Shown: positions 6,165-55,363, numbered from the whole stretch's first letter. The stretch is DNA of 55,988 nucleotides, filler included, from Dirinaria sp. TL-2023a (GCA_051941275.1; 3 parts of 3 records of this genome joined end to end with filler, not necessarily neighbours in it); one strand, 5' to 3'. The notes: a model not told the origin generated them from the sequence alone. Numbers and translations: made by a program.

Positions 6165-7398
6165 CTTGCACTGCTATCGACCACTCTCCCACAGTGCTAC
6201 AATCGTTTTGGTGGAACCGAGTTGGGATTCATCTGTTAAGGAGGTCCAGGATCGGGTGTCGTGTTACAGGCGGTGATAGTGATGAGCAAGGATCATTAAA
6301 GTCGAGCTGGGGTGTTGCTAAGGACGCGGAGGAATCAGGTTGTGATGCGGGCTAAGCTGCTTGACAAACGGCACAGAGGGAGCCGAGTCCGAGGTGGACA
6401 GCAAAAGACGCGAAAAAACGGTTTCTCCAGCTCCAGCTTCAGCTTCAGCTTCAAAATGACATGATTATTTTCCAAGAATTCTGCATGACCAACGATCCGC
6501 CTTCGAATAGCTGGCGTAATGTATACGGAATAGTGGGGGAATAGCTGAGTTGATGAGGTCAAGTAAGTACTGTTGGTAAGGTGAGATAGTAAGGTCGGCA
6601 GGTGAGAAGGCAAATCAAGCACTGTGCCTTAGGTAAGGTCAGGTAGGTAAGGTACGGATGACTATTCGTACGGACCACCTTACCTATCGACTTTACCCGT
6701 AGAGGTGCCGAACCTTTAGCTGGGTGTGCGGGCTTAGAGGTAGCGTAGGTACCTAGTAGGCAGGGCTCGGCAGGTAAGGGTTGCTCAGCCCTTTTGTTTT
6801 TCTTACGGAGCCTGAAGCTGTCCATCGAGCGCCAAGTTCTCGGGCTCGGCGGCTTTAGGTGGTGGGGCACGTGACCAGTCTTGCCATCGATTGGTGGTGG
6901 GTACTCGTACCTTGAGGTCCGACGGGGGCTGCATTGATGTTGGGGGTGGACAGCGGCAGACTGCATGAAGGATTGAAGAGCGGGGGCGAAAGGGGGGGTT
7001 GGACAGAACCATCCTACCTATCATCACTGATGTGACTGGCTGACGAAATGCAGGAAAACAACTCGCGGAATCTTTGGATGACAAGTGACTGCATGAAGTA
7101 CTGTATGATGATTGATGCGAAGGTAAGATATCTACTTAGTCACATGGAATCGGTCAATGCACAAACGTGATGATATCAGGGCAATCCGTTCATAGAAGCC
7201 ATGGAGCCATAGTCTCGACGCTTTGGTCAGCATTATGTACAGGAGGTATCGAATGTAAGCAAAGCTGGCAACGTCTCTCTTCGGCGACAACGCTCTCTTG
7301 TATTACCACTCCCACCACCTCATCCTCCTGCAACGGACCAACCCCGCCATAGCACGCAAAGGAATGGCAGAATCCCCTCAAAGACGGAGGCTGCTCTG

Positions 7399-11282: not shown

Positions 11283-12117
11283 ATAGAAATACTGGATATT
11301 TTATCGTTATAGATTGTGTTCAGAAATAGTACCTATGACAGAATGTTGTCCTTGAACTCGCAAAGGTTCTTCCACTGGTATTCCAATTATCACTCTACCA
11401 AGTTTGACCCCAATCAAGCCCGTTCGATCTCGGAAGATATAAATTTCGGAGTCCTTACTCAGTACTAACTCACCTTACTTTCAACATACAGTGTATGCTA
11501 CTTTTGAAACTCGCATTCGAATCAAGCGAAAACCTCTACCTGGGCCGATACCACAGCAACGCCTAAGTGAGATTTGAGGACGCACGAAAATTCCAACCAA
11601 ACCGATCACGAACCACTCCAATGAATAGGTCGCTTAACACCTTGTATCTCAGGCGGACGCTGTTGCATGAAGCCAAAGAAGCCAATTTCGAGCCGCAGAT
11701 CAACCAACCATATTTCCCATGTTACTTGACCCGCAGAACACTAATAGAAGATAGGGGAAATGACTAGGTAGTATAGGCAAGACCGAAAACGGAAGTAATA
11801 AATCAAGGAAGTGACTGGCACGAGGGCAGTGCGGTACCAGGGGTAGGTAGAGCCTAGTAGTGGATCAGGAGCTGAAAGACAACAATGATGGCCATCGAGA
11901 TTGAAGAGATTGAGAGTGGATTTGAGGATAGCGATATAAAGTAAGGTACAGTAAGTAGCTATAGTAATTGTGACTTCAAATAATCTTCTCCTACTCAAAG
12001 GATACAAGTAATACATACATACAGGAACGTGATCGCGAAGTAAAAATAGAAAGGAAGGAAAAGAGAAGAAGAAAGAGAGAGGGAAAGGAAAAAGAAAAAA
12101 AAAGAAAAGAAAAAAAA

Positions 12118-12402
12118 ATTGTACATGCCCTATCCCACATCTTCAGTCCGACTCCCCGCCGGGGTAGGAAGGTGGGGTCAGAGTCGCTACATTAGCCATT
12201 GCCTTTGAAAGTAAAGGAAGAGGGCCCGAAGGACGAATGACCCACCGCGACCTAGATACGTTGCAGGCCCACAGGGGTAAACCCCGAAAGGTCCACCCCT
12301 ACGTGTGTGCCCAAGGGAACGGTGGAAAGCCGGGCCTCGGAATGTAGGCGAGCATGTGAGGCAGGATTTACAGCGGCCATGTTACCATTACGCCATCATA
12401 CC
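12118..12402 (-). ncRNA. Candidate structured non-coding RNA of unknown class, probably Pol III-transcribed
   Basis: TATA-rich element at 12421-12440, A-box-like TGGCGTAATGG at 12395-12385, two UUCG-capped hairpins, long-range 5'/3' pairing and an oligo-T run at the 3' end. It is a GC-rich island between A/T tracts. Confidence 0.6.
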
Positions 12403-12479
12403 TAAGATGCGAACCACGGCTTAATTTAAATATATAAATTCGATTTCGTCGAGAGTTCGAGCACCGGTAAGACCACGAA

Positions 12480-12511
<32 letters not shown>

Positions 12512-13235
12512 CTTGCACATACTCACCTTGACCTGGCTTTTCATGTTATGAATTTGTTCCCTTTGGTTCAATTATCTTCTAGATGCCTGTGCTGAAGGTC
12601 CATGGAGGTCCTGTCCTGTTCGAGTCTCCTGTTGTGGTCGGTATATGTTCGGGATCAAGACTAATCACGTGTTTGGACTACTAAAATGTCAGAGTTGAGT
12701 AGTATGTAACACCATTATTCTCCTATGTCATTCTCTGTGCAAACAGGTTCCAGCTTAGTTCAATCAATTTCGAGGGGAGCCATGATAGGAGGGTTCAGCA
12801 TAGTCTCAGGTGGTTTTCATACCAGATCACTATGATGCAACTATGTTTTTCATTTTTCCCTTGTCAATAGGATAATAGGTCTTACTGCTTGGTTCGACTC
12901 TCAGATAAAAGAGACAGCAGGCTAAGAGATAGATCATACTGTCACAGTTTGTATTTCTTGGAAGAAGCTACTTGCTTCTTGCCCTTTGATTCTTGTAACT
13001 CTATTCTCATAAGAGATTCTAATCTCCCCTTGGCGCTTGTTCAGGCAATGGGGCATAATGAATAATTGTACACAAAGAGACATTTGAGAGACCTACTAGA
13101 TGCTCGCAGACGCATCGTTTGTTGGATCTTTCCCAGCTCTTCTTGAACCATTAATAATACCACATTCGGTTGCCTTGGGTATAGGGCATAGGGACTATCC
13201 ACAAGCTTCTCAGGCCTAATTTCCTTCTCTGGTAT

Positions 13236-18607: not shown

Positions 18608-18707
18608 NNNNNNNNNNNNNNNNNNNNNNNNNNNNNNNNNNNNNNNNNNNNTTAATTAATTAANNNNNNNNNNNNNNNNNNNNNNNNNNNNNNNNNNNNN
18701 NNNNNNN
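18608..18707. other. Artificial contig-joining spacer
   Basis: 44 N + TTAATTAATTAA (stops in all six frames) + 44 N. Confidence 0.97.
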
Positions 18708-21235: not shown

Positions 21236-22186
21236 CCGCATCACGGTCTCGGTGGTTTCGATCGCATCATCCTCACACACGCGGATTGAAGCGGGCACAT
21301 GTCTGCGGTATGAGGATTCGATCACAGTATTGTTACAAAAATTGTTGTGGGAATTGCGAAATGGGAAATGGGAAATGTTCAATTGCTCGAATGGAAGAAT
21401 TCGAATCGAGTCCGGCTCGGCGCGATTCCCATTTTCGGTGTGTGTACATGATTACCTAAGGTACCTTAGGTAGGTTCCCTTTCATCGCAAAGCTTGGCGT
21501 GCATTTATATGTGAGCAAATCAGCCCCACCTTGGAGCTCTTCTTTTTATGACCTGGTATACATAGGTATGTTAGTCGGATTTGGATCGTGTACTGTACAT
21601 GCAACTGCTCAACAATTGATGAATATTGAATACGCTGGGCTTGCAAAGTTCGGTCGATGTGTCAGAGTTTTAGTAGTGATAGATATGTCGTGACCGATCA
21701 TATCAAGGCTAGATTGACACTAGAATGTTTAGGGCATTTAGCGCTCGTTCTCAGGAATTGGCTGGGCTGCAAAAAATCGTCACATCATCTTTGTGACCGA
21801 GAAGACAAGAAACACCACTATGACTGTGAACCCAGACAAATGATAGAAACAGAAGAATCACACTGGATTTCCAGTTGTCTTCAACGATTAGCAACATTTG
21901 CGATGGGCGGTTGTATCGGTTTCCCCACAAACGCATGCCAAGATTACGGTTCGCAAAGACGGGACGAGGGGACGGGTATCACGCACACACGCACCCATTT
22001 CAGACTAGCGCAGATCTTCGCGGTCGTGACTTGGACACACGAAAGCTGCACTTGTCAATTCCCGTAATCCTACGATACCTTACTTCGAACATACCGGATA
22101 TGAGCGGCTTATCGTGCTAAGCGTTGAGAGATTTCAATGCCTGCAAAGTCACGGGTGCCTACTGACCGACAAATAACAAAGCCGTG

Positions 22187-23434: not shown

Positions 23435-25505
23435 ATGGCCAAGTTAGAGCGCACCGGGTGTCCGGAAGTCCATAAAGTCTTCCCTCAGGAGAACAATGGC
23501 TCTTCTGCACCTCTGCAATTGCACCGAGACGGTATGAGACAGGGTTATCGTATGTATGGGCCTCCTCGACGTTGAGCACTGTTGACTAGGTTCAGATCTC
23601 GAGTCCGCTCCAGATGTTGAAAGGCAGCCCAAAGCACAAGAGAAGGATCCAGCATTGCCAGACAACTATCCGGACAGGATGGCTATACTACACTTCAGTC
23701 CGAATGATCCTGAGAGCCCGTACAATTGGTCTTCTGTATGATCGATCAGTTGGCCACTTCGCGTAGATCTCTCTGACTTGAGTGCCAGAGAAAAAAGATT
23801 TTGATTGTTCTTATGGGCACTGTGGCAGTCGTGAACAGCACGTTGGGCTCATCATTGCCGAGTGGAACCATAGACTATCAAGGTCCTTATTTCCATGTCG
23901 CCAATCAGGCCCAACTCGTGCTACCCGTGTCTCTCTACTTAGTCGGATACACCCTTGGTCCATTATTTTTTGGTCCATTATCGGAAGCGTTTGGGCGCAG
24001 AATCATCATGGTATCGAGTTTCGCTGTATTTACGCTTTTCACGCTGGCTTGCGCTGTGGCCCCCAACTGGCCTTCTTTCTTAGTCTTTCGTCTGTTTTGC
24101 GGGATTACCGCATCAAGTGCAATTGCTGTCGTTGGTGGCCTTTTTGCTGATGTTTACGGTGACCCGGTCACTCGTGGACGTGCCATGGCGGTCTTCATGG
24201 CAGTGAGTATCCGTGACCCGCTTCTGCAATTGGCGCTTATCCCTGTAGGCTACGACTTGTGGGCCGCAGTTGGGCCCCGCGATCTCAGGCTTTGTGTCTG
24301 TTGTGAGCTGGAGATGGACATACTGGGTGGGTTTGATTGTCGCGGGAGTTTCGCTACTTGCCCTATTTTTCCTACCTGAAACATATGGGCCAACGCTCCT
24401 CAAGCGAAGGGCTCAGAAGTTGCGAACGGAAGGCGTGAACACCAACGTATACGCCCCCATCGAATTAGAGAAAAAGGGTGCCAAGCAGATGATTACCGTC
24501 ACGCTCATGAGGCCCTTGAACATGTTCTTGTTCGAAGCCATTGTCCTCTTTTCGTGTCTCTACCTGTCATTAGCTTACGCTATATTTTGTAGGCTTCGTC
24601 AACGCAGTAGCTCTGCAGAAGTGGCTGACAGTCTGTGCAGATCTTTTCTTCGAGGCATATCCACTAATCTTCCAAGGTCAGTACCTGTATTTGTGGAATC
24701 TGGTGTAAGGTAGTTATTGACATGCACAAGGAATATACAAAATGAATACAGGCGAGACAGGGCTTGCTTTTCTTCCAAGTCAGTATTCGCACCACTCGGA
24801 GGGTTTGAGACGAAACTGACGATCGTATTAAGTTCTCATTGGCGCTTTCATCACACTTCCTATTTTTTTCTACTGGGATGGCGTTCTACAGCGAGCTAAG
24901 AAGAAGGGTGCGCACTGGACCTCCGTCGAAGAGTACCGTCGTCTGCCACTTGCCTGTCTGGGAGGTCCCCTTTACATTATCTCCCTCTTCTGGCTCGGTT
25001 GGAGCGCTTCACCTGATGTTCACTGGATAGTGCCAATGCTGGCAGGAATTCCATTCGGCGTTGGCTTCCTGCTTATCTTCATGGCCCTCCTCAATTACAT
25101 CGCGGATGCCTACGAAATCTTCGCCAACAGCGGTAAGTGCCACGGCTGTACCCTGGCCCACGGAATGATGTGAAGGTGACTGTGTGAACAGCCATGTCAG
25201 CAAGCAGTTGCTGCCGAAGCATTTTCGGTGCTGTGCTCCCGATAGCTGCTCGACCGATGTATGCCAAATTAGGCATACCCTGGGCCAGCAGCCTCCTGGG
25301 CTTCCTGAGCCTGGGTATGACCATCATCCCGTTTGCTTTCATCAAGTACGGTGACCGAATACGCGCAAATAGCAAATTCTGCCAGGAGCTAAAAGCGAAG
25401 AAAGCTCAAATCGAGACAGAGAGGCGGCAAAAAGCTGGCATGGATCATGGATCGAATGGGTCGACTCCTGTTGGCGATGACAATTTTTCCAAGGAGGAAA
25501 TTTGA
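23435..25505 (+). CDS. MFS multidrug transporter, DHA1-like (multi-exon; start uncertain)
   Basis: DPESPYNWS, GPLFFGPLSEAFGRRI, FRLFCG, WRWTYW, PETYGPTLL, EEYRRLP and YGDRIRANSKF motifs, joined by several GT-AG introns. Confidence 0.88.
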
Positions 25506-35732: not shown

Positions 35733-37304
35733 TGCCCCTCCCTGCACGCCTCTCTCTGGCATCTCTGCCCTCCACAGTGGCTTCAGTGGCTTTTTCTCGA
35801 AGATCTACCAATATTCGGCCATGGAAGTACTAGTCTGTGCCGGCAGAGTACGAAGGTAAGAGACGTACCTGACTGCCCCTCCCCACCACACCACTGAAGT
35901 TCTGAACCCATCTTGGTGGGAGGGGTCGACTTCGTAACAACCCATGAACAAGCAGGAACTCCCGCCATCGGCTCCACTTCCAGAGCTGCAAGCATTTTCT
36001 CTTTGCGCTCGTTCTCTCATAGGCTCTTGAGACATCGTGCCTGAGTTGAGGGCTTGAGGCGCGCTCCGACAGACACGAGCTTCGTGTGCACCCCGCCCAC
36101 TGACGGTACCATGACCGCACAATGTGATAAGGCAGTGGCTGGAGCAGCCCAAACCCTACCTGGAGTCAGGTAGGGATCTCACTGCACCTTGACCATGTCA
36201 ACGGCACACAGTATTTTAAGGTAACGACGCTTTGACCAAGAGCTCTCCGGTCCAAAGTCAGGAAACATTGGATGCCACATCATCAATTGTCATTGGGCAA
36301 ACGGTTCACTGGTCCTTCGTATTCTTCAACTACCTTAGGTAAGGTATGGCCGGGATTCCTGTCCACTAACGATTTTTCAACTGCTAGTCTCAACGGTGCT
36401 TGGCTACGGAGTGCTAAGGTAGTAGTAGCCAAAAACGTTTCTCGAAATCTCGTGGGCGACTTGGCCAGCCTTAGCCTTCTTGGCGTTCTCGCTCACTTCC
36501 GACGTCGCTCGTTCGCGCGCAACTAGCGAGGCATGCTTTAGAGCCTGCATCTACCTTTTACCAATGTACTACGACTGCTGAGAAGCATCACAATCAACCT
36601 CTGGAAATGTTCGGGACCATTGTCCAATGGCCAGCTCGCTGGCTGCGGTGCAACAACACTTAGGACTGCCATGTTGTTGAACTCGTACGGAGCAAGTAAG
36701 GTAGCAACCAGGCAGTGTCCATAACGCCGCTCCACGCACTGGCAAAGCAAGTTATTTTAATGAGTGATGGCTCACGAGAGACCGGCCACAGCGGATTTTT
36801 AAATTCGCCGAACCATGTTTGCCTTTTCCCTCCCTTGAGTCAAGTCCTTGCCATGGCCCGTCCTCCGTACGTGGAAAGGGTCTAAGCATGCAAGATTTCG
36901 TGTTCGGCAGCAAGATAAAGTAAGTACCTTATGGGGGTTTCCCTTTGCACCGCTTGCTGAGAAGCTTGGGAGCTTGAGAGCTTGGGAGCTTGGCAAAAGA
37001 GAAAATACGAAAGGTCCTCCCCACTTTTTCTTCTTCTTCTTTCGTTGTTTTCTGCATGGTTTGTCATGGTCCCAACGCAGCTCTTGCATTAGCTTTTCCA
37101 ACTGTCTGCCGCAAGCTGGGATGAGTCAGCGGAGGGAGTGGATCACTGTACTCCGTAGTCCAACTGTCCAGAGAGAGAGAGCTTCTTACTTTTTACCGTA
37201 AGGTAATCTGCCAGCCACCGGGCCTGCATGCATCCTGCCCTGAGTGCCTTGAGTACTGTACTGTACTGTATGTATGTACTGTACCGTACCCTGGCTCGCT
37301 TACC

Positions 37305-37404
37305 NNNNNNNNNNNNNNNNNNNNNNNNNNNNNNNNNNNNNNNNNNNNTTAATTAATTAANNNNNNNNNNNNNNNNNNNNNNNNNNNNNNNNNNNNNNNN
37401 NNNN
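37305..37404. other. Artificial contig-joining spacer
   Basis: 44 N + TTAATTAATTAA + 44 N, identical in design to 18608-18707. Confidence 0.97.
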
Positions 37405-40214: not shown

Positions 40215-42006
40215 GTTAAGAGATGATGTCGATAATGTGCATGTAGTGGAAGGATTGTGTCTCGAAGTCAACTTTTTTTAAGTTGGATGATAGTAGAGAA
40301 AAATTAGAAGTGTCGTACCCCACCCTTTTATAGATGCTATTCACTATCGGCGGAGGCAAAAAATAAAATGCTGCCTGAAACGATCTCTGCCTCGACTCGG
40401 TACCGAGGCCGCACAAGTTGAGAAATTTCTGCACGGGTTGAGGAATGGAAGCCAAGCAACGGTGGACTATGAAACCTGTAAAACCGCACCCTCAACACCC
40501 CCAACAACATTTCTTAGATAGGTTGACCAAAACGGTCTAGCTTCTAGACTAGTCACCTCAACACCACTAAGGGTAAATAGTGCCCACAAATGCTTTTCCA
40601 TAGACTTTAGACAATACATGCAACATACACATACATAGGTACAATTGACTTGTAGGCCTACTAAATCTGACAAAACCCTTTTTCGCTAGTACATGGAAGT
40701 ATCTCTTCTGATGCCATACTATGTGGTTTGATTAGGAAGCTTCGACTTTTTCGTAGCATAGTAAACTTTCGTTATTAAAATTCGATATTCTAAGAACAAT
40801 GGCTCCCAATAAACAGGGTCACTCGGATACTTCGAATAAAGAAAAGCCTTAAGATTGTGCTGGATTCGCGAGAGGTGATACATTTGTACTTATCTGAACT
40901 CATCCAGTGACGCATTGATCCATATTTGGGACTACTACTTTCGATACTCTTGCTATTACCCAAACAGCTTGTACGAGTTCCTGAATTGATGCAGGCTCTT
41001 CTTTGTTAGTCCATACCATGGTCGCCTTGTTCATTGATTTCTCGTGCTTCAGGGCATCCATATTCGATGTCGAGATGAGACTGACCCGCGCGAAACACCA
41101 AGATTGTAATGCGAGGAAGGCAACGACGGCGCATTTAAGGCTTAAAACTTTGTTCAAGTAAAAGACAAATCTTTTCTAGAGAAACTCGCTATAATTCGAT
41201 GAAAATAATCATAAATGAACAAATATGGCTCCGAAGAGAATCGTCTTGTAGATATGTCTTTGTCATGACCTATCAGGATTTCAACAGGATTATTACTCCT
41301 TATAACGCGGTTCTTCATAAAAAGATGGTTTACTGTATGCCACGTCCTGACAGAGTGCTTGGTCAAGAAGACATTCAAGGAATCCCCCAAACTATGACTT
41401 CCTGTACAACCATATCTTAGCAGAGACTCAGTGGGCCATTAGATGAAATTGGCACGGTATCTTAAGAACATCAGTATCTACGCTCTGTTAGTAGTGTCAA
41501 TACGGCGTCGATGATATACCAATACGACTAATCAGGTGAAGAGGTTGATGTTCTAGAGATACCGGGTTTACTTGGTTTCATGACCGAGTAAATTTCCGCT
41601 AAGATAGCAGGACATACCAACGAAATGACCATAGACCGTTCCACCGATGAAGACCCCTTGTCGAATAGACAGTTTGTGGAAGTTGACTAGGAATCATGTG
41701 GGAAACAGTAGTTCCAAAGCAGTAATAAATGTGTCAAGGAACGAAGATCTCTTGTTGCTGGGCAATGGGACAGTTGTGCGATAAGCTAGGCTCTCTGGGT
41801 TTTCATGTTCCGTAGAGATTCTGCTAAGGTGATGAAGATTGAGTACTGCGATGTTCGGAGAGCGAAACTCAGGATGAGATATACCTAGTAATGATTGACC
41901 TGAACCCCGTTCTAGAGCCGTTTCCAGGAGTAGTACCTTCAGTCCAATCTTCCAAGTATTGCATTTGCCGTTGGCTGCCCTCTACGATGCAAGACCTGCC
42001 TTCCCA

Positions 42007-53346: not shown

Positions 53347-55363
53347 ATGGAATCTCTGCTGGCTGCACAAGAAATGCCTCCTCAGACGGCCAGGCCTCAG
53401 CTCCCGCTACTCGAAGTTAGCGAGTCTACCTCAGCATCCTCTTCCGCCAGCTCGCCAGAACAAGCCGCATACGACGACGCCGACTTTTTCCTCGAACATC
53501 GCAATGACTCCCAATCCTCAATCGGTGCACTGTCCCTGCGAGATATGACCGTGTCCCCGTCGCAAGAACGGGAATATCGAATGTCCCCAATAAGCCGTCT
53601 CCCACCCGAGCTACTCATAGGTGTATTCGCAAAGCTGGGCTCCACCACCGATTTGAAAAATTGCATACTGGTCTCGAAGACATGGGCGAGGAACTGTGTG
53701 GACCTGCTTTGGCATAGGCCATTGTGCAACAACTGGAAGAACTTGGCCAATGTTGTCACATCAGTCGGGAAACCAGATAGCTACTTTCCATACCGCGATC
53801 TCGTGAGGCGGTTGAATCTTTCCAGTCTCACCGATTCTGTCAATGACGGGACCGTTACGCCCTTCCAATGGTGCAAGAGGATAGAGCGGTTGACTCTTAC
53901 CGGATGCAAGAAATTGACCGATCAAGGGGTAATGACACTGTTAGACGGCAGTAGGAGCCTTTTAGCGCTGGATGTTACGGGGCTGAATTCAATCACCGAC
54001 CACACCCTTCTAGCTGTTGCGCGCAACTGTGGCCGCCTCCAAGGACTCAATATCACGGAATGTTCTCGGGTCACTGATGAATCACTCGTAGCAGTAGCTG
54101 AGAATTGCCGATATCTGAAACGAGTGTGTACCCCGCCTAAAGCGCTACAGAGCTCTTGACTAACAACCTACAGCTGAAGCTCAACAATTGCTCCCTCATT
54201 ACAGACGAGTCTATCACAGCTGTCGCAAAATTCTGCCCAGCTATGCTTGAGATCGATCTCCACAACTGCAAACTAGTCACCAGCAAGTCCATTACCGATC
54301 TGCTAGCCCATGGTCGACAGCTCCGTGAACTACGTGTCAACCACTGCAGGCTTATCACGGATCAGGCATTCCTCGATCTCCCCAAAAGCCTATCCTTCGA
54401 AAGCCTTCGAATTCTCGATCTTACAGACTGTGACCAACTACATGATGAGGCCGTGGAAAAGATCATTGACACTTCTCCACGATTACGAAACCTAGTCCTG
54501 GCCAAGTGCAGAGAGGTTACCGATCGCTCCGTTATGGCTATCACCAAGCTGGGTAAAAACCTTCACTACATCCACTTGGGCCACTGTGGGAATATTACCG
54601 ACGAAGCAGTCATTCAGCTAGTGAAGCTATGTAATCGGATACGGTACATTGATCTTGCCTGCTGCCACCGGCTCACGGATGCCAGTGTTCAGCAACTGGC
54701 TCAACTCCCAAAGCTGAGGCGCATTGGACTTGTAAAATGCCATAACATCTCGGATCGGAGCATAATTGCCTTGGCGAAATCAGGGGTACGGAGACCCACC
54801 AAAGCTGTAGCGGAAAGTCTGCTTGAGAGAGTTCACTTGAGCTACTGCTTACACTTGACACTTGGGGTGGGTTGATCCGCATCATTTCAACGCCTTTGCG
54901 GCTAATGCTTCCATAGGGCATACACGCTCTTCTAAACCAGTGTCCCAAACTTACTCATCTAAGTTTGACGGGCGTAGCGGCCTTCTACATGCGGGAAGAC
55001 CTCCTCGAGTTTTGTCGAGAAGCACCTGTTGGTGAGTTCCAAAAAACTTTTGCCTCATGTTTCAATCAAGCTTTACTGACTCATCTATTCTCTCTAGAAT
55101 TTACAGCGCATCAGCGCACCGTCTTCTGCGTTTTCTCCGGCGACGGTGTCAATCGCCTGCGCAACTACCTCAACACAGACCCCCAGTCTATCTACGACAC
55201 CGAGGGAACGATGTACGACGATCGCGAAATCACAGATGGGGACAACGACCAACAAGTTGCCTCATTGATGAACATGGCTGGCATCAACGACGATGAAGAT
55301 GGCGAAGAAGATCCAGAGGCAGGAGAAGGAAGCCAATTCGGAGGGGAAGCGGAAGGAATATAA
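53347..55363 (+). CDS. GRR1: SCF F-box/LRR protein Grr1 (GrrA), 4 exons
   Basis: F-box ISRLPPELLIGVF...LLWHRP, FPYRDLVRRLNLS, LRRs, LERVHLSYC, LTHLSLTGV and EFTAHQRTVFCVFSG. Confidence 0.95.

Follow-up and report, generated by a model that had tools for sequence, protein, structure and literature searches.

A 285-nt stretch on the minus strand of DNA from the lichen fungus Dirinaria sp. TL-2023a (GCA_051941275.1; ~12402 to ~12118, with signals spanning 12110–12440) is laid out like a gene that RNA polymerase III (Pol III) transcribes. With a probability of roughly 40%, we read it as a lineage-restricted Pol III unit that would make a structured, scaffold-type RNA of ~285 nt from a promoter taken from the 5′ part of a tRNA gene. 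Positions refer to the window, that is, the whole stretch of DNA that was analysed (55,988 nt, filler included). An earlier reading of the same DNA (hereafter the sequence-only reading) had picked the element out as a structured RNA with a tRNA-like head and Pol III-type signals. That observation is real and is confirmed in part, the helices it named and its “tRNA-like” label both being partly right. The analysis shows the signals and their geometry, a predicted stability specific to one strand, and the absence of coding potential and of Rfam matches, and from there on transcription, the exact ends of the transcript, its fold and any function are inferred; the element is a good candidate for inexpensive testing rather than an established finding.

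Read on the minus strand from an assumed start at G12402, the order of elements is GGTATGA-TGGCGTAATGG-TAACATGGCCG-CTGTAAA, and the RNA would begin with GGTATGATGGCGTAATGGTAACATGGCCGCTGTAAATCC. The A/T-only block upstream (Table 1) contains a TATATAT core at 12430–12436, which is −34 to −28 relative to that start. The A-box-like 11-mer TGGCGTAATGG occupies +8 to +18 and has one mismatch to the consensus TRGCNNAGTGG. At the other end, the RNA would finish in ...GTACAA and run into nine Ts (T9, 12118–12110) that open a T/C-rich tract of ~95 nt and are placed 5 nt beyond the last predicted helix. The longest T run within the 285 nt is 3, and there is no internal T4. The features listed in the sequence-only reading (the A/T block, GGTATGA...CTGTAAA, CUGUAAAUCC, and ACAA followed by a T run) were thus all recovered at 12110–12440, as was its A-box-like motif at +8.

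There are 23 A-box-like words at ≤1 mismatch in the window on both strands; T runs of at least 9 are rare there, with four on the plus strand and five on the minus strand; B-box-like words at ≤2 mismatches number 145 on both strands, which makes them a weak signal. We combined an A-box at ≤1 mismatch with a TATA-like word at −42 to −18 and a T run of at least 6 at +60 to +500. When both strands of 153,365 bases were scanned, comprising the window and 14 fungal metagenome loci that encode SDT1 relatives at 43–67% identity, this composite descriptor matched the present site alone. The figure measures rarity and is no blind test, as the descriptor was devised after the candidate had been seen. 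The GC content of the candidate is 0.568, versus 0.398 and 0.408 in its 500-nt flanks, and the edges of this GC island are sharp and coincide with the promoter-like and terminator-like signals. The arrangement of the signals resembles a Pol III gene more closely than chance would explain.

Table 1. Positions in the window of the candidate RNA, its putative signals, the parts of its predicted fold, and the two flanking genes. RNA numbering starts at the assumed +1 (G12402).
Feature	Position	Strand	Basis or remark
A/T-only 20-nt block, candidate TBP/TFIIIB site	12421–12440	−	Read in sequence
B-box-like GGTTCGCATCT just upstream of assumed start, significance doubtful	12405–12415	−	2 mismatches to consensus GGTTCGANNCC
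A-box-like 11-mer, +8 to +18	12385–12395	−	1 mismatch to consensus
5′ head, RNA 1–43	12360–12402	−	GUAA-capped 3-bp hairpin, TGGCGTAATGG, CUGUAAAUCC
Rod, 5′ strand, RNA 46–83	12320–12357	−	Predicted to pair with RNA 242–280
Distal arm A, RNA 91–138	12265–12312	−	Predicted, P = 0.96
Distal arm B, RNA 157–232	12171–12246	−	Predicted long irregular hairpin, helix probabilities 0.65–0.98
Rod, 3′ strand, RNA 242–280	12123–12161	−	Predicted fold
Unpaired ACAA tail, then T9 (12110–12118), candidate Pol III terminator	12110–12122	−	Read in sequence
SDT1-like HAD hydrolase (HAD-type nucleotidase)	ends 11282	+	Pfam PF00702/PF13419
Isocitrate dehydrogenase (IDH)	stop ~13236 as read	−	Pfam PF00180

Predicted structure is specific to the strand that bears the signals. 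The minimum free energy (MFE) of the minus-strand RNA is −113.3 kcal/mol (z = −2.28; 3/200 shuffles equally stable), in contrast to z = 0.02 for the plus strand (103/200), in agreement with the earlier claim that structure favours the minus strand. In a second set of shuffles that preserved dinucleotides (n = 200), the whole RNA scored z = −2.14 (5/200) and its body, nt 44–285, z = −3.13 (1/200). The ensemble diversity is 32 against a shuffle mean of 67, with 9/200 shuffles as low. Folding energy is unusual here but not unique, and we regard it as a modest signal.

The predicted fold consists of a small 5′ head, a long rod and two distal arms, followed by an unpaired ACAAU tail. The rod comprises ~27 bp in interrupted helices (46–53/273–280, 55–62/262–269, 66–67/257–258, 70–79/246–255 and 81–83/242–244), with mean pair probabilities of 0.97–1.00 in the four main helices and 0.49 in the 2-bp one. 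Arm A holds a perfect 12-bp hairpin capped by UUCG (RNA 103–130 = 12273–12300), a weak hairpin follows at RNA 139–156, and arm B contains 6 × 6 and 5 × 4 internal loops and an ACUUUC apical loop, with no GNAR loop and no AGG/AGCA pair. When 100-nt flanks were added, the fold of the body, rod included, was unchanged, and the head re-paired with upstream sequence. The predicted rod begins just after the head and stops 5 nt short of the T run; we count this spacing as the strongest indication from within the element that promoter, fold and terminator form a single unit. Six helices had been named in the sequence-only reading, and all exist as complementarities, but only the 12-bp UUCG hairpin is kept in the MFE structure. 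The other five are not, and as a fold the set does not hold: enforced jointly, it reaches −86.6 kcal/mol at best, 27 worse than the optimum and worse than the shuffled mean of about −102, and its “closing helix” includes one C-A mismatch.

If the unit works as we propose, the TATATAT block near −30 would position TFIIIB/TBP with the help of the tRNA-type A-box at +8 to +18, which would lie in a decayed head resembling a tRNA 5′ half. Pol III would then traverse the T4-free body and terminate in the T9 run (~12402 to ~12115), giving an RNA of ~285–290 nt with a 3′ oligo-U end. This RNA would fold into the small 5′ hairpin, the interrupted rod and the two arms described above, and it may act as a stable protein-binding scaffold, neither guide nor tRNA; the scaffold role is suggested by an outline of the type seen in signal recognition particle (SRP, 7SL) RNA.

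The stretch is non-coding. Stops are present in all six frames, no Pfam match was obtained for the two longest open frames, and two translated minus-strand frames had no relatives in large protein collections. A plus-strand frame gave a single protein match, P0121, which we rejected as a tandem-repeat artefact: it is 770 aa long and contains 11 copies of a 64-aa unit with the word LSLIHIS, which we take to be the translation of a sequencing-adapter sequence, so that P0121 is presumably a database artefact.

The candidate is not a tRNA. ARAGORN reported no tRNA genes in the window and none in the 14 fungal loci, and when introns were allowed and thresholds lowered to 50–80% it made no call starting at the head. 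A cloverleaf with T-arm and acceptor stem was found neither by ARAGORN nor by the Rfam tRNA model at E ≤ 10, in line with the sequence-only reading, which had seen no T-arm and no 3′ acceptor strand. What survives of its “tRNA-like head” and of the term “tRNA-derived” is a resemblance to an A-box and D-arm; the cloverleaf is missing, and the head folds no better than its shuffles.

Searches for known RNA families were also empty. The whole window had no match among 4227 Rfam families at gathering scores. In E-value mode, queries of 701 and 306 nt yielded nothing beyond two chance-level hits, RUF6-5 (E = 7.2) and TLS-PK6 (E = 9.4). None of the RNaseP_nuc, RNase_MRP, snRNA or snoRNA families of Rfam matched either strand, and the RNA contains no AGCA, in line with the sequence-only reading, which had seen no SRP helix 8 and no RNase P/MRP motifs. 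By eye, we saw no CR-I/CR-V words, GARAR loop, hinge H box or C/D arrangement, no pseudouridylation pocket 14–16 nt from ACA, and no telomere-template repeat. Readings as an H/ACA, C/D, U3, telomerase-template or 7SK/Y/vault RNA were rejected for missing boxes or the wrong end topology. The plus-strand word GGTGGAAAGCCGGGCC, which recalls bacterial RNase P CR-I, was likewise dismissed, as the plus strand is unstructured and has no Rfam match.

The candidate sits in a gap of ~2 kb between two convergent genes, those for the SDT1-like hydrolase and IDH. The window consists of three separate contigs joined via N100 spacers at 18608–18707 and 37305–37404, both bordered by TTAATTAATTAA and giving stops in six frames. 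The SDT1-like protein has closer relatives at the protein level, P0002 and P0003, which are 84% and 81% identical.

Several results weigh against a working Pol III unit. There is no B-box within or downstream of it (≤2 mismatches, minus strand, 11700–12800), the sole match lying upstream of the start. T9 need not be a dedicated terminator, since T/C-rich tracts are common in fungal intergenic DNA. The head taken separately (nt 1–43) scores z = −0.44 against dinucleotide shuffles (61/200), and the composition-corrected energy of the candidate is matched or beaten in 14 of 1928 genomic windows (285 nt, step 57, both strands, N-containing windows dropped); energy alone would not single out this site, and it is the coincidence of signals that does. 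Relatives were not found either. A 24-base two-block head pattern, made of the A-box block and a CTGTAAATCC block, had no matches in metagenome contigs and none in viral contigs, and its one match in prokaryotic genomes was discarded as chance, falling inside an Enterococcus coding region without a tRNA. The sequence-only reading had proposed a search of the SDT1-IDH2 interval in related genomes. None of the 14 SDT1-linked loci contains the candidate RNA: blastn reached no better than E = 0.27, over 14 nt, and nhmmer gave nothing at E ≤ 10. None of them has the IDH gene either (tblastn), which means that synteny is already lost at this level of identity and that the comparison says little about conservation. 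A screen of 1371 ascomycete genomes reported 17 new structured RNAs (PMC8216456), and the portion of that report available to us includes no intergenic RNA of ~285 nt of this kind, which suggests that the RNA, if real, is probably narrow in range. We found no description of such an RNA in the literature searched.

One rival reading is that no gene is at work here and the site is a decayed relic, for instance what is left of the 5′ end of a dead tRNA gene beside GC-richer intergenic DNA, the TATA-like block, T/C tract and foldability being coincidental. We consider this somewhat unlikely. The lack of any sign of conservation in the metagenome and viral pattern scans and in the SDT1-linked loci speaks for it, as do a head that is neither tRNA-like (ARAGORN, Rfam) nor structured and the 14 windows that fold equally well after composition correction; moreover, blocks rich in A and T and extended tracts of T or T/C on both sides make promoter and terminator words cheap, and an earlier reader had picked the site out of 56 kb. 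It does not readily account for several independent features coinciding at the right spacing, with one composite match in 153 kb on both strands, nor for GC edges that are sharp exactly at the signals, a body with z = −3.13 on the signal-bearing strand only, and a rod that stops 5 nt before the T run. Transcription could also be due to RNA polymerase II (Pol II), the stretch being a far-downstream 3′ untranslated region (UTR) or read-through of IDH, or an independent Pol II non-coding RNA whose TATA serves that enzyme. The IDH gene is indeed on the same strand, with its stop ~830 nt upstream, and a TATA box at −30 can just as well be a signal for Pol II. However, a distance of 830 nt is long for a fungal 3′ UTR, IDH is separated from the candidate by an A15 run and AT-rich DNA, and an A-box at +8 with T9 right after the fold are Pol III features, which makes this account very unlikely. 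Some Pol III genes of yeast have promoter leaders, and the head might similarly be a leader that is cleaved off, as in yeast RPR1 or SNR52, from a divergent RNase P/MRP RNA or another known small RNA (snRNA, snoRNA or telomerase RNA): the body (46–280) joins its own two ends in the manner of a P1 helix, and an ACA triplet lies 2 nt ahead of the T run. With no Rfam match on either strand and none of the motifs listed above seen by eye, we find this barely credible.

Two further alternatives draw on the overall shape of the unit. Its predicted outline is of the SRP type, with a 5′ hairpin, a long rod that has its 3′ strand at the end of the molecule, and two distal arms, and a size of 285 nt together with Pol III signals would suit an SRP RNA. 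The candidate could thus be the SRP RNA of this lineage, with a UGUNR-bearing 5′ domain, a long helix 5 and an S domain altered beyond the reach of covariance models. Helices 3 and 4 are absent from the SRP RNAs of Dikarya, which always have UGUNR in a loop (Dumesic et al., 2015, PMC4605306); the 43-nt 5′ domain of the candidate carries a UGUNR-type word, UGUAA (RNA 31–35), within CUGUAAAUCC at 12364–12373 and in a predicted bulge. The same text describes basidiomycete SRP RNAs that were missed computationally because of changes in helix 8. Given this precedent and the outline, the SRP reading is worth testing, but it fails on the defining part of the molecule. The RNA has no AGCA and, beyond the head, no GNAR-capped hairpin, and the invariant helix 8 A-C/G loop cannot be placed. 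With UUCG and ACUUUC as their caps, the distal hairpins lack the conserved loop adenosines of helices 6 and 8; arm A, the candidate counterpart of helix 6, has UUCG where an A would be expected at loop position 3, and helix 8 would call for an apical loop with A at position 4. In fission yeast, UUCG is reportedly able to replace the helix 8 tetraloop functionally. Several placements of helix 8 were tried by eye and abandoned, among them the register U149-A-G-G/A215-G-C-G and the GGAG-capped CGG/UCG hairpin at 245–254, as none puts an A-C/G loop beside a short GNAR-capped stem. No SRP family, Fungi_SRP included, matched at gathering scores or at E ≤ 10 (306-nt query), the prior for a single SRP RNA gene falling in a given 56-kb window is small, and helix 8 alterations are, in the part of PMC4605306 available to us, “not at all within Ascomycota”. 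We therefore regard an SRP RNA as quite unlikely, and give an equally slender chance to the pair of SRP-type possibilities taken together, namely an SRP RNA with helix 8 rebuilt beyond recognition or a second 7SL-shaped Pol III RNA with an Alu-like 5′ domain, a rod and a different cargo domain. Alternatively, the unit may be no cellular RNA gene but a copy of a tRNA-derived short interspersed nuclear element (SINE) or SINE-like retroposon. Fungal SINEs of 140–900 bp are known, and the AfuSINE2 units of Aspergillus fumigatus, as described by Kanhayuwa and Coutts (2016, PMC5063351), share the layout of head, body and oligo-T: they are 140–493 bp long and present in one to few copies, with a tRNA-related head that forms no cloverleaf and has degenerate A and B boxes, a tRNA-unrelated body upstream of an oligo-T tract, and target-site duplications of 4–14 bp; five of eight units are transcribed. 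Of the two boxes of such a head, the candidate has the A-box and lacks the B-box, those of AfuSINE2 being themselves degenerate (PMC5063351, same text). No target-site duplication was detected: the upstream flank (123 nt) and the downstream flank (146 nt) have no word of at least 6 nt in common (words of 4–5 nt are uninformative in such T/C-rich flanks), and the 56-kb window holds no second copy. The unit also lacks an A-rich or LINE-like tail, it lies midway in an 18.6-kb contig, away from any assembly break, and a TATA block at −30 would not move along with a retroposed copy. A SINE is accordingly improbable in our view.

Some observations outside the candidate are recorded here for their own sake. 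Fifteen consecutive As (T15 on the plus strand) occupy 12481–12495, and the region 12441–12505, between that run and the TATA block, contains the hairpins GUUCG...CGAAC and UCGA-CGAAA-UCGA as well as T-loop-like words such as GGTGCTCGAAC; ARAGORN at 50–60% thresholds makes a meaningless “tRNA-???” call there. This region may represent the remains of an older tRNA gene or else belong to the promoter. The most over-stable 285-nt window of the folding scan is at 6613–6897 on the plus strand (composition-corrected z = −4.6), a long near-perfect hairpin of GGTAAGGT/ACCTTACC-type words. Similar palindromic words of the TACCTAAGGTA type recur at 2404–2439, 21452–21477 and 36331–36356, and together these may represent a small dispersed inverted-repeat element. 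A cluster of over-stable windows on both strands at 41326–41724 (z of about −3.6) indicates a long imperfect inverted repeat. On the minus strand, 25024–25422 and 54208–54492 have composition-corrected folding z of about −3, with stop-free frames of 200 and 352 codons ≤1.5 kb away.

Among known systems, the yeast Pol III genes SNR6, RPR1, SNR52 and SCR1 combine an upstream TATA with tRNA-type internal or leader promoter elements. The candidate resembles them in its TATA at about −30, early A-box and putative termination in a T run; they also use a B-box (in the leader, internally or downstream), whereas the candidate has none inside or downstream. To our knowledge, fungal Pol III transcriptomes are scarcely charted beyond model yeasts and uncharted in lichen fungi. 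With the SRP RNAs of Dikarya, the candidate shares a Pol III-type gene of about 250–300 nt and a 5′ domain with UGUNR (here UGUAA) in a loop or bulge; a single-sequence prediction would add a long helix that links the 3′ end to what follows the 5′ domain, and two hairpins at the far end. It differs from these RNAs (Rfam RF01502, RF00017) in that it lacks the symmetric loop of helix 8, with its A-C pair and G, the conserved loop adenosines and, outside the head, any GNAR loop. Should either SRP-type possibility be true, remodelling of SRP RNA, so far reported from Basidiomycota only, would extend to Ascomycota; and a conserved, structured, 7SL-like RNA of ~285 nt without an SRP54 site would be either a new ribonucleoprotein scaffold or a case of remodelling of the ascomycete SRP core.

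The nearest described kind, by analogy, is AfuSINE2, and the proposed Pol III unit may have originated much as those low-copy, tRNA-headed units did. As far as the available description goes (PMC5063351), both would have a head related to the 5′ part of a tRNA, with a promoter box and no cloverleaf, an unrelated body reaching to oligo-T, a length of a few hundred bases, and one or few copies; AfuSINE2 likewise belongs to a filamentous ascomycete, and the likeness is one of description. Unlike AfuSINE2, the candidate has neither a target-site duplication nor an internal B-box, and it has a TATA block at −30 and a GC-rich body with UUCG tetraloops and a strongly predicted rod-and-arms fold. With AfuSINE2, a filamentous ascomycete has already provided low-copy Pol III units that join a tRNA head to an unrelated body, so the proposed unit would not be the first of its general kind. 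If the Dirinaria element is a one-off unit of this sort, it would show that dead tRNA promoters are able to drive new small RNAs.

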